DNA from: Escherichia coli
Lineage (GTDB): Bacteria > Pseudomonadota > Gammaproteobacteria > Enterobacterales > Enterobacteriaceae
Length of the DNA stretch: 64,000 nt
Assembly: GCF_024223415.1 (NCBI RefSeq)
Contig: NZ_CP100500.1
Direction: 5' to 3' (one strand)
Part shown: one piece after another, positions 4,032 through 43,269 of the stretch
Position numbering within the stretch: position 1 is the stretch's first letter
Layout of the letters: each line of letters begins with the position of its first letter
Program-made: the position numbers and the translations under genes
The notes under the pieces: model-generated
What the model was told of the DNA's origin: nothing
The model's database searches: none
The model's input: only the letters and a program-made list of their open reading frames with translations

Positions 4032-4736
4032 ATGCGCCTGGTTCAGCTTTCTCGCCATTCAATAGCCTTCCCTTCCCCGGAAGGCGCATTACGTGAGCCT
4101 AACGGCCTGCTGGCACTTGGGGGCGATCTTAGCCCTGCGCGCCTGTTAATGGCTTACCAGCGTGGTATTTTTCCGTGGTTTTCTCCAGGCGACCCCATCC
4201 TCTGGTGGTCGCCAGATCCCCGCGCGGTGCTATGGCCAGAATCACTGCATATCAGCCGTAGTATGAAGCGATTTCATAAACGCTCGCCCTATCGTGTCAC
4301 GATGAATTACGCTTTTGGTCAGGTCATTGAAGGCTGTGCCAGCGATCGCGAAGAAGGAACCTGGATCACGCGTGGCGTGGTCGAAGCCTACCATCGCCTT
4401 CACGAACTCGGTCATGCCCACTCCATTGAAGTCTGGCGTGAAGATGAGCTTGTCGGCGGTATGTACGGCGTGGCCCAGGGAACGCTATTTTGTGGCGAGT
4501 CCATGTTCAGCCGGATGGAAAATGCGTCTAAAACGGCGCTTCTGGTATTCTGTGAGGAATTTATCGGTCATGGCGGTAAGCTTATCGACTGCCAGGTCCT
4601 TAACGATCACACAGCATCGCTTGGTGCCTGCGAAATTCCCCGCCGGGATTACCTTAATTATCTCAATCAAATGCGCCTCGGACGATTGCCGAATAATTTC
4701 TGGGTACCACGATGCTTGTTTTCACCACAAGAATGA
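4032..4736 (+). CDS. aat: leucyl/phenylalanyl-tRNA--protein transferase
   Basis: 234-aa ORF in the conserved cydC-aat-infA context; sequence recognisable as Aat. Confidence 0.9.
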
Positions 4737-40951: not shown

Positions 40952-41260
40952 TGTTTCACCGTTATATAACGGTATCATTCAGTTTTTAAAAATGGCGACA
41001 GGTTAACCTGTCGCCATCCGGTCAGATGCTCACCAGACCGCGCCCCCCATCAGTCTCCATATCCTCCCCCTTGCCCTGCCGGATGATAGCGCCACGCGAC
41101 ATCACCAGGTAGTGGTCCGCCGTAATGTTCCGGTGAAATCGTCCTGACACGTTTCCGGGCTCGTTATCAGCGGTTTTTGCGAATGATCGCCGCCCTGCGA
41201 TGGTTGATTTATTTTATTGCGCCCCGGCGTCTGCCTTGCCAGGTACCGGAGGCGGGCTCT

Positions 41261-41360
41261 GAAGTACTGAGTAGGGTGAGCGCGTCAGGCCACGAAGTAC
41301 TGACACGGGAGTTTGTGGCAGGCAGTGAAGTCCTGACCAGGGTAAGGGAGGGGCTGACGT
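41261..41360. repeat. three degenerate 33-bp tandem direct repeats beginning GAAGT(A/C)CTGA
   Basis: Units start at 41261, 41294 and 41327. Confidence 0.6.
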
Positions 41361-41580
41361 GCATGCCCTGACTGTCAGCCAGGGCGCGTGGTGACTGACT
41401 TTCTCAATAACCCGCTGTCAGGCGCTCAACGCCCGACAGCAGGCCATGGCCCGGTGTGCAAAGACCTGACGGCAGGCCTTGTGTCACCCGGATAAGGTAA
41501 ATCCCTCAAGAGGCAGCAACTCAGCCAGTCGGTCCTCAGGCCACTCCGGCAGGCGCGTCAGTACGTCCGTCAGCCAGGCA

Positions 41581-41692
41581 TGTTGCAAAATCGCATCGTG
41601 TTCGATCGCCGATTCGCATCGTACTCGATCGCTGATTCGCATTGTCCGATCATTGATTCGCATCCTGCAGTCACTCCTGGAATTAACTTTTC
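41581..41692 (+). repeat. repeat copy B1: putative IS21-family left terminal region with three GATC-containing about 21-bp subrepeats
   Basis: Starts TGTTGCAAAATCGCATCG; subunits GATTCGCATCG-N-GATCGC; lies about 150 bp upstream of istA. Confidence 0.5.
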
Positions 41693-41733: not shown

Positions 41734-43269
41734 TTGATGGCTAAAAAGAAAATCTCCCGGAGTTCTATGGAAACCTGTTTAAAAATTCTCCAACTTAAGT
41801 TCGAGCAGCATCAGACAAACCGGACTATCGCACTTACACTGAACATCAGTCCCTCGACTGTTTCCGATGTATTGTCCCGCTTTAAGAACACGTCAATATC
41901 GTGGCCTTTGCCTGAATCGATGACAACTCAACGTCTTGAGGTGCTTATCTTTCCTGGCAAGCAAGCCCCGGAAATGACGCCGGCACTGCCTGACTGGCTC
42001 TACATTGATACCGAACTACGTCGTGTGGGAGTCACTCGTCAGCTCTTATGGATGGAATACAAACATCAGGCTGGTGAATATGCTCTGGGATACTCACAGT
42101 TCTGTCGTCGTTATCTGCACTGGAAAAAAAGCGTGCGTTACTCCATGCGGCAGGAACATCGTGCTGGTGAAAAACTCTTTATCGACTTCTGTGGTCCTAC
42201 AGTCCCTGTTGTTAATCCGGAAACCGGAGAAGAACGCAGAGTGGCCATCTTTGTAGCCGTGATGGGAGCATCTAACTATACCTATGTTGAAGCGTGCGAA
42301 GGTCAGGATCTGATGTCGTGGCTAAACGCCAACAGCCGATGTCTGACCTTCCTTGGTGGTGTACCAAAACTGCTGATCCCGGATAACCTTAAAAGTGCTG
42401 TCAAAAAAGTCGATCGCTACGAACCGGTCATCAATGAGAGTTACCAAGCATTCGCAGAGCACTACAATACAGTGATACTCCCAGCAAGACCAAGAAAACC
42501 AAAGGATAAAGCGAAAGCCGAAACGGCTGTACTTATCGTCGAACGATGGCTGCTTGCCCGCATTCGCAACGAGACCTTCTTTACACTCAGGAGCCTGAAC
42601 AGTCGTCTACGCGAGTTGTTGGTAGAGCTGAATAACCGTCCCATGAAAGGATACGGCAACCAGACGCGTGCAGAGCGTTTTGCCCTGCTGGATGCCCCTG
42701 CATTATCAGCCCTGCCAGTATCAGAGTATGAGTTCGCTGAATACAAAACGGTGAAAGTTGCACCTGATTACCATGTTGAATACGCCCACCACTGGTACTC
42801 AGTACCTCATGAACTGATCGGACAACGGTTATCCCTGAAAGCCACTCAGACAGTGATCCAACTCTGGCATCAGGGGCAATGCGTGGCACAACATCCGCGC
42901 AGCCTCCATGAGTACAAGCACACGACCAACCCTCTACACATGCCTGCAGCACATCAGGCACACAGCAGATGGACACCGGAAAGTCTTCAGGAAGCAGCCA
43001 GAAAGATAGATCCTTATACAGCAATGACAGTGGATAGCATGCTGAACAGTAAACGTCATCCTGAACAGGCTTACCGGACAGTCCTGGGGCTGCTGAGCCT
43101 GAAAAAACACTATGGTCGTGAGCGTCTGGAAAAAGCCTGTCATGTTGCCCGGGAGTGCAGAACGTCGGAAAGAAGGTTCATCGAAAACCTTCTGCGTAAT
43201 AACAGGGAAAACCTTTCCCTCCGGAAAAAGAGAGGCAGACGGAGGGAAACGTATCAAAAATCCAGTTAA
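41734..43269 (+). CDS. istA: IS21-family transposase IstA (orphan; no istB downstream)
   Basis: 511 aa with N-terminal helix-turn-helix and DDE integrase core; sequence typical of IstA. Confidence 0.85.
   Translation: MMAKKKISRSSMETCLKILQLKFEQHQTNRTIALTLNISPSTVSDVLSRFKNTSISWPLPESMTTQRLEVLIFPGKQAPEMTPALPDWLYIDTELRRVGVTRQLLWMEYKHQAGEYALGYSQFCRRYLHWKKSVRYSMRQEHRAGEKLFIDFCGPTVPVVNPETGEERRVAIFVAVMGASNYTYVEACEGQDLMSWLNANSRCLTFLGGVPKLLIPDNLKSAVKKVDRYEPVINESYQAFAEHYNTVILPARPRKPKDKAKAETAVLIVERWLLARIRNETFFTLRSLNSRLRELLVELNNRPMKGYGNQTRAERFALLDAPALSALPVSEYEFAEYKTVKVAPDYHVEYAHHWYSVPHELIGQRLSLKATQTVIQLWHQGQCVAQHPRSLHEYKHTTNPLHMPAAHQAHSRWTPESLQEAARKIDPYTAMTVDSMLNSKRHPEQAYRTVLGLLSLKKHYGRERLEKACHVARECRTSERRFIENLLRNNRENLSLRKKRGRRRETYQKSS

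Follow-up and report, generated by a model that had tools for sequence, protein, structure and literature searches.

The DNA analysed here is a stretch of 64,000 nucleotides from Escherichia coli, referred to below as the window. Three degenerate tandem repeats had been noticed between the gene for an MFS transporter and the remnant of an IS21-family element, in what a preliminary description called a gap. The stretch is not anonymous: it lies between the terminal inverted repeat (IR) of an IS66-family insertion sequence and the stop codon of tnpC, and the interval from the MFS transporter gene to the IS21 remnant can be fully accounted for as a fragment of a sitB-like gene followed by the relic of one IS66 end (Table 1). 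The sitB-like fragment (41022-41121, minus strand) corresponds to the C-terminal part of an ABC transporter ATPase and abuts the IS66 tip; in other strains, this relic adjoins another part of sitB, beside an intact sitA (L002). Right after the stop codon of the MFS transporter gene there is a perfect 13+13-bp palindrome (40992-41017), which has a sub-threshold Rfam match to the terminator part of CsrC and is probably the stem of an intrinsic terminator.

The truncated IS66-family end

When the region 40960-41590 was compared with complete E. coli genomes by megablast, the segment from about 41122 to 41586 matched the ends of IS66-family elements adjoining tnpC. The relic aligns, from the tip of the IR into tnpC, with the intact tnpA-tnpB-tnpC elements L003, L005, L006 and L096. 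Of its 462 bp, about 360 bp are non-coding DNA; this part is preceded by the right IR at 41122 (GTAATGTTCCGG...) and followed by the last 33 codons of tnpC, and the repeats are situated 139 bp inward of the IS66 tip. The right IR begins with GTAA, is matched by the left IRs of intact relatives, and has a mean column conservation of 0.88 (computed on ten of the 11 aligned elements, the near-identical L001 being left out). The counterparts of the tnpC remnant in L001 and L002 are annotated in RefSeq as "IS66 family transposase, incomplete", and the TnpC of L003 contains the domains LZ_Tnp_IS66, zf-IS66, DDE_Tnp_IS66 and DDE_Tnp_IS66_C and also matches NF033517.

The intact element L003, which is carried by an E. 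coli plasmid, has its tnpA, tnpB and tnpC genes between traI and traX. Its IRs start with GTAAT, the right IR pairs with the left IR, and the element is flanked on both sides by an 8-bp target-site duplication, GCTGATGA. The closest named relative of the relic in the window is ISEc49, and one of the aligned intact elements is assigned to the ISEc49 family by RefSeq; the identity of the relic to its named and intact relatives is only about 70-73% over the non-coding end. An intact copy of the type in the window was not found among the E. coli matches, where this type occurs in relic form only. The cognate tnpA and tnpB are absent from the window and there is no left IR, so the relic is not an intact member of the subgroup. 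The element family is known and the copy in the window is an ordinary relic. Because the element lacks tnpA, tnpB and almost all of tnpC, the array in this window is most likely an inert leftover.

The relic is cut off at 41584 by the left end of an IS21-family element; in strain AR_0085 (L001), tnpC sequence continues at this point. The IS21-family element starts with TG and contains a tandem array of 23-bp units (3.3 copies, 41591-41664), which resembles the terminal repeats that IS21 ends typically carry in several copies, followed by istA (41734-43269); there is no istB after istA, and DNA identity to ISSso4, its nearest named relative, is only about 75%. The window also holds an intact ISEc8, another member of the IS66 family (about 15322-17631, minus strand), with TnpA, TnpB and TnpC 98-100% identical to those of the ISEc8 copy in L004. 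The TnpC of this resident ISEc8 is only 33% identical to that of the subgroup that bears the array, a further reason to regard the array here as most likely inert.

Table 1. Features of the IS66-family relic and of the repeat array within it (coordinates are those of the window)
Feature	Position	Strand	Evidence or remark
Relic of the right (tnpC-distal) end of an ISEc49-like IS66-family insertion sequence	41122..41583	-	megablast/blastn and alignment to intact elements
Right terminal inverted repeat (IRR), GTAATGTTCCGGTGAAATCGTCCTGAC, tip inward	41122..41148	+	aligns with the IRR of 10 relatives
64-aa open reading frame with SEVLxR repeats, judged not a gene	41177..41371	+	list of open reading frames
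Flanking site 0, degenerate, CAGGTACCGGA	41240..41250	+	21 bp before site 1; counterpart CAGGTACTGAC in Serratia L094 at equal spacing
Site 1, core GAAGTACTGAG	41261..41271	+	mean conservation 0.76
Site 2, bipartite: GTCAGG, 4 nt, core GAAGTACTGAC (41294-41304)	41284..41304	+	
Site 3, bipartite: GGCAGG, 4 nt, core GAAGTCCTGAC (41327-41337)	41317..41337	+	core conservation 0.84
Flanking site 4, degenerate, CATGCCCTGAC	41362..41372	+	35 bp after site 3; aligns with Serratia CAGGTACTGAC and L003-type CAGGTTCTGA
Strong hairpin about 30 nt past the tnpC stop, on the tnpC-sense strand	41411..41450	-	fold z-score -2.79 on the minus strand vs -0.84 on the plus strand
tnpC C-terminal remnant, last 33 codons and stop	41484..41583	-	tblastn, 74% identity to residues 489-527 of L003 TnpC

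Structure of the repeat array

The existence of three degenerate 33-bp tandem units, as originally described, was borne out: the units start at 41261, 41294 and 41327 and, across 41261-41359, read GAAGTACTGAGTAGGGTGAGCGCGTCAGGCCAC, GAAGTACTGACACGGGAGTTTGTGGCAGGCAGT and GAAGTCCTGACCAGGGTAAGGGAGGGGCTGACG. Any two of them are identical at 17-21 of 33 positions; 14 columns are invariant among all three in this register, and 18 in the best register, which starts at 41242. Tandem Repeats Finder (minimum score 30) missed the array because the units are too degenerate, and a custom test of invariant columns was used in its place. By this test, the array stands alone among all positions of the 64-kb window in having at least 14 invariant columns at a period of 33, and it is the top three-copy tandem repeat of the window if periods from 15 to 60 are allowed. 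In 1000 dinucleotide-preserving shuffles of the local 362 bp, its score was not matched once.

Each unit contains a bipartite block of about 21 bp, G(T/G)CAGG-N4-(G/C)A(A/G)GTACTGA(C/G), and a spacer of about 12 bp that varies freely. The second part of the block is an 11-bp core with the consensus (G/C)A(A/G)GTACTGA(C/G), which carries the palindrome AGTACT. In the right non-coding end of the element, the three 33-bp repeats form the central part of an array of five sites, with one degenerate site on either side. An inverted near-copy of the core, GACGTACTGACGCG, occurs on the minus strand at 41554-41567, within the tnpC remnant; because it is not conserved in relatives, it is probably a chance occurrence within coding sequence.

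Conserved cores and drifting spacers in related elements

A search of genome contigs with the TnpC of L003 gave one close relative, all others being at most 38% identical. Relatives of intermediate distance were obtained by tblastn of plasmids with a Pantoea TnpC and by a pattern scan of metagenomes for two cores 32-35 bp apart. Among the metagenome loci in which the cores are spaced by 33 bp, 25 of 33 are ISEc49-like IS66 ends and the other eight are unrelated repeats, most of them within long open reading frames; the pattern also caught many unrelated arrays with periods of 16, 32, 34 and 35 bp, which were set aside. The scan revealed a new metagenomic subgroup (L114/L157, L120 and L142), with TnpC about 70% identical to that of L003 and sites spaced by 33 and 34 bp. 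The L114 type occurs in three distinct insertion contexts with TnpC intact, which suggests that it is an active element. Arrays beside a TnpC of 31-34% identity (43% in L169) were considered as a further subgroup and rejected, as they are ISEc49-type ends cut by another IS66 element. In L118, L122, L155, L156, L163 and L169, the ISEc49-type right end is cut exactly at position 209, just after site 2, and this nested IS66 insertion in metagenome contigs is either recurrent or widely spread.

Between subgroups from E. coli, Serratia, Pantoea and metagenomes, which have TnpC proteins only about 57-70% identical, core identity is 79-97% and spacer identity 47-84%, with about 50% for distant pairs, statistics that rest on about five independent subgroups, as most of the aligned elements are closely related. 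The most pronounced example is Serratia compared with the L114 type (cores 94%, spacers 47%). In the 11-way alignment, the register of the three units starting at 41261 ranks first of 257 placements for conservation, and conservation extends to the G(T/G)CAGG block, which lies 4 nt upstream of each core. Within the non-coding end, no block is better kept across the 11 aligned elements than site 2, which is nearly invariant even when Pantoea, Cedecea and Salmonella are included.

The distances between the sites are maintained as well, being 33/33, 33/34 or 34/35 bp depending on the subgroup. A five-site spacing of 21/33/33/35 bp is common to the window and to Serratia, the element of which has five clean sites: CAGGTACTGAC, GAAGTACTGAG, GAAGTACTGAC, GAAGTACTGAC and CAGGTACTGAC. 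The TnpC of Pantoea sp. At-9b is 57% identical to the L003 type and the DNA of this element aligns with the window only inside tnpC; its end nevertheless carries GAAGTACTGAC, GAAGTACTGAC and CAGGTGCTGAC at distances of 34 and 35 bp, separated by unrelated spacers.

The number of units varies. L005 lacks exactly one unit, and L119, L138 and L154 lack another, such that L005 and L119 have only two clean units; losses of single units are as would be expected for recombination between repeats. In more distant IS66 members, namely ISEc8 and the Salmonella element L091 (TnpC 45% identical), the ends are short and the array is absent. As these distant members transpose without it, the array is evidently not essential to IS66 chemistry.

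Asymmetry of the two ends

A census of the motif (with up to two mismatches) over the whole elements L003, L005, L006 and L090 found it confined to the tnpC-distal end, in one orientation, and found no sites at the left end. The pentamer CTGAC/GTCAG, for which 0.83 occurrences would be expected in the end present in the window, was observed there 10 times; in ends of this kind its density is about 17-28 per kb, as against about 4 per kb over the remainder of the element.

The unit also has some likeness to the IR of the end in which it lies. Its best ungapped alignment to the right IR, at IR positions 7-30, has 12 matches over about 22 informative positions (P about 0.006 against shuffles), whereas for the left IR the corresponding P is about 0.21; unit 2 and the IR of the window itself share 16 matches (P about 0.03). 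Overall, this likeness to the inner right IR is modest. The IRs themselves differ between the two ends in every subgroup: the right IR reads ...CATATTGAC... and the left ...CATCTTCACAG..., with TTGAC on the right in place of TTCAC on the left. This comparison covered the left IRs of L003, L006, L090, L094, L095, L096, L114, L120, L141 and L142 (the left end of L092 being degenerate) and the right IRs of L003, L005, L006, L090, L092-L096 and the window. The right IR contains an inward-facing -35 hexamer (TTGACG), which was considered as part of a promoter and rejected, as no usable -10 hexamer follows it.

A putative array of protein-binding sites

Conserved cores, free spacers, phasing at about three helical turns, restriction to one end and likeness to the IR of that end together form the signature of a protein-binding array. 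It is moderately likely that the array, which lies in the right end of an ISEc49-like IS66 element, provides phased accessory sites at which an element-encoded protein binds. As the sites recur every 33-35 bp, i.e., about every three turns of the helix, they would share roughly the same face of the double helix. The protein that would bind them could be TnpC, via its N-terminus, which has a zinc finger and a leucine zipper, or the small TnpA. If such a protein were loaded cooperatively at this end alone, it would distinguish right from left, and would help to assemble or to regulate the transposition complex.

The suggestion in the preliminary description that the repeats might be a protein-binding array therefore stands, in that the conserved cores, variable spacers and kept phasing fit it, whereas its picture of a free-standing iteron or recombination site does not, the array being inside an IS66 right end. 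Nor are the neighbouring Rpn or YagK/YfjJ-like proteins, which had been put forward as partners, the ones to consider: the logical partners are the TnpA, TnpB and TnpC of the IS66 subgroup, which have been lost from the copy in the window.

Several observations weigh against accessory sites. The left end has no array, whereas the classical multi-site transposon ends, those of Mu, Tn7 and IS21, have sites at both ends; the likeness to the right IR is modest; elements with two clean units imply that three copies are not strictly needed; and distant IS66 members such as ISEc8 and L091 transpose without any array.

Alternative explanations

The period of 33 is divisible by three, and the repeats create a frame (EVL) that is uninterrupted over 64 aa in the window and over 193 aa in L003, L005 and L006, where it runs antisense into tnpC, so they could be imagined to encode an 11-aa peptide repeat (SEVLxR...) in a small plus-strand gene. 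This is very improbable, and the earlier judgement that the 64-aa frame is an artefact was correct. From the repeats to the tnpC stop, substitutions at the three codon positions number [39,28,28], without an excess at third positions, as against [3,6,17] in the adjacent C-terminus of tnpC (eight copies); the frame is stopped or frameshifted in the window, L001, L004, L007 and L008; and the periods in relatives are 34 and 35 bp. A search among related genomes for the repeat as part of a conserved protein-coding gene was negative, no Pfam family matches either the 64-aa or the 193-aa frame, and RefSeq uses a different frame in L003, where it annotates a 47-aa "hypothetical protein" at 4205-4348. 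The stop-free frame of 193 aa in L003 (4084-4665, plus strand) has neither a family match nor a codon signature. Thus, the 64-aa open reading frame should not be called a gene. A role of the repeats as RNA, either in the 3' untranslated region of tnpC or in an antisense RNA transcribed from the non-coding end, where they might, for instance, offer a series of sites to an RNA-binding protein or regulate tnpC, has more in its favour and is nonetheless unlikely. The stretch follows tnpC immediately, and transcription of this gene would extend into it if the hairpin at 41411-41450 is not a terminator; a stop-free frame and antisense transcription are both conceivable; and the minus strand folds well. 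This good fold is owed to the hairpin, not to the repeats. The block GTCAGGCG.TCAAC.CCCGAC in this hairpin is kept as far as Pantoea, and the hairpin may be a 3' stem-loop of the mRNA or a further binding site. Over the repeats, an Rfam scan (E up to 1) gave only a chance-level match (41219-41288, E = 0.39), the same scan of the window giving the terminator-like match at the palindrome 40992-41017. RNAalifold, run on 11 ends, gave a weak consensus (-9.98 kcal/mol for 432 columns) in which the covariation term was unfavourable (+0.82); no structure was supported over the repeats, and the pairs placed there do not covary but are invariant. No sigma-70-like promoter and no terminator over the repeats emerged from consensus scans of the window and L003, the sole terminator-like match being a weak stem of 5-6 pairs upstream of them (41186-41201), no more than shuffles give.

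Neutral tandem duplication, in which the repeats arose once by slippage in the non-coding end of an IS66 element and have been carried along without function, would be in keeping with the variable copy number (one unit was lost independently in L005 and in L119/L138/L154) and with the lack of the array in IS66 members outside the clade. It should have led to even decay, yet between subgroups the cores have stayed at 79-97% identity while the spacers have fallen to about 50%; the phasing of 33-35 bp has been kept while the sequence of the spacers was replaced; and the register of the units is the single best-conserved of all those placed on the alignment. An origin of this kind with no subsequent function is therefore regarded as improbable, though slightly less so than the RNA-level role. 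Binding by a protein of the host, such as a regulator or a nucleoid protein, which would couple the element to host physiology, is a little more doubtful than either. The palindrome AGTACT in the core would suit a dimeric host regulator, and the lack of an array at the left end is unusual for transposase sites; against this, the unit resembles the right IR of the element itself, and the motif is kept in Escherichia, Serratia, Pantoea and metagenomic contigs. To our knowledge, the core matches no familiar enterobacterial operator consensus (LexA, TrpR, CRP, FNR, IHF and others). Specific host operators (the LexA half-site TACTG, TrpR GTACT, CRP and FNR) were tried and rejected, as none fits the full core or the spacing. 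The least probable explanation, to the point of being nearly dismissible, is a free-standing iteron of a plasmid or phage origin, or a recombination site, or a site serving the Rpn or YagK-like genes. Direct repeats with a fixed period do recall iterons, and many carriers of the array are conjugative plasmids. The search elsewhere that had been proposed for the repeat found it in plasmids, E. coli genomes and metagenomes, with every homologous copy inside an IS66 element, where its position with respect to the IR and tnpC is fixed, and gave no match in phages. The insertion contexts of these elements vary (traI/traX, sitB, a gene with a ParB domain), and in the window neither a replication (rep) gene nor origin features adjoin the array.

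Comparison with known systems

Accessory binding sites for an element-encoded protein, the reading favoured here, can be compared with three known systems. The relic shares with the ISEc49-like IS66 subgroup (tnpA-tnpB-tnpC, with a TnpC of 527-536 aa) the GTAA start of the IR and the adjoining C-terminus of tnpC, and it aligns base for base with intact right ends; it differs in being a 462-bp remnant from which tnpA, tnpB and most of tnpC are missing. Plasmid iterons are similar in having direct repeats, conserved cores and a spacing near whole helical turns. They are spaced by about 22 bp, unlike the 33-35 bp of the array, which is always within an IS66 element and is accompanied by neither a Rep gene nor an origin, an AT-rich region or a DnaA box.

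Multiple terminal or subterminal transposase-binding repeats are known from the IS21 family, phage Mu and Tn7, and the 23-bp repeats at 41591-41664 are an IS21 example in the same window, only 230 bp away. The common features are several phased copies of a motif, which here may be related to the IR, a single orientation and asymmetric ends. Unlike those arrays, the putative IS66 sites are at one end only, are only partly IR-like and do not abut the tip, beginning 76-150 bp away from it. By analogy, the array would belong with the subterminal repeat arrays of transposable elements. No published description of repeats inside IS66 ends was found in full-text searches, the reach of which did not extend to the main older papers on IS66, where an earlier mention is possible.

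Significance for IS66 transposition

Elements of the IS66 family are common on virulence and resistance plasmids, and their mechanism has barely been studied. They need three genes, only one of which encodes a recognisable transposase. For annotation of the window itself, the practical value of the array is smaller. For the family, a conserved, phased array at one end that bears some resemblance to the inner part of the IR of that end is a concrete, testable cis element, which predicts a place where a protein binds. Through it, the binding of DNA might be assigned to TnpA or to the TnpC N-terminus, and it may account for how the two IS66 ends are distinguished. A bolder reading, which is offered tentatively and is rather less likely to be right than wrong, is that the five sites are a one-sided, phased landing pad, evolved in the ISEc49-like clade and copying the inner right IR, with which an element-encoded protein could tell right from left or limit its own activity, or else that the end of about 360 bp is a functional RNA. 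If either were true, the poorly understood three-gene system of IS66 transposition would have gained its first described cis-acting accessory module, and with it a handle on the roles of TnpA and TnpB.
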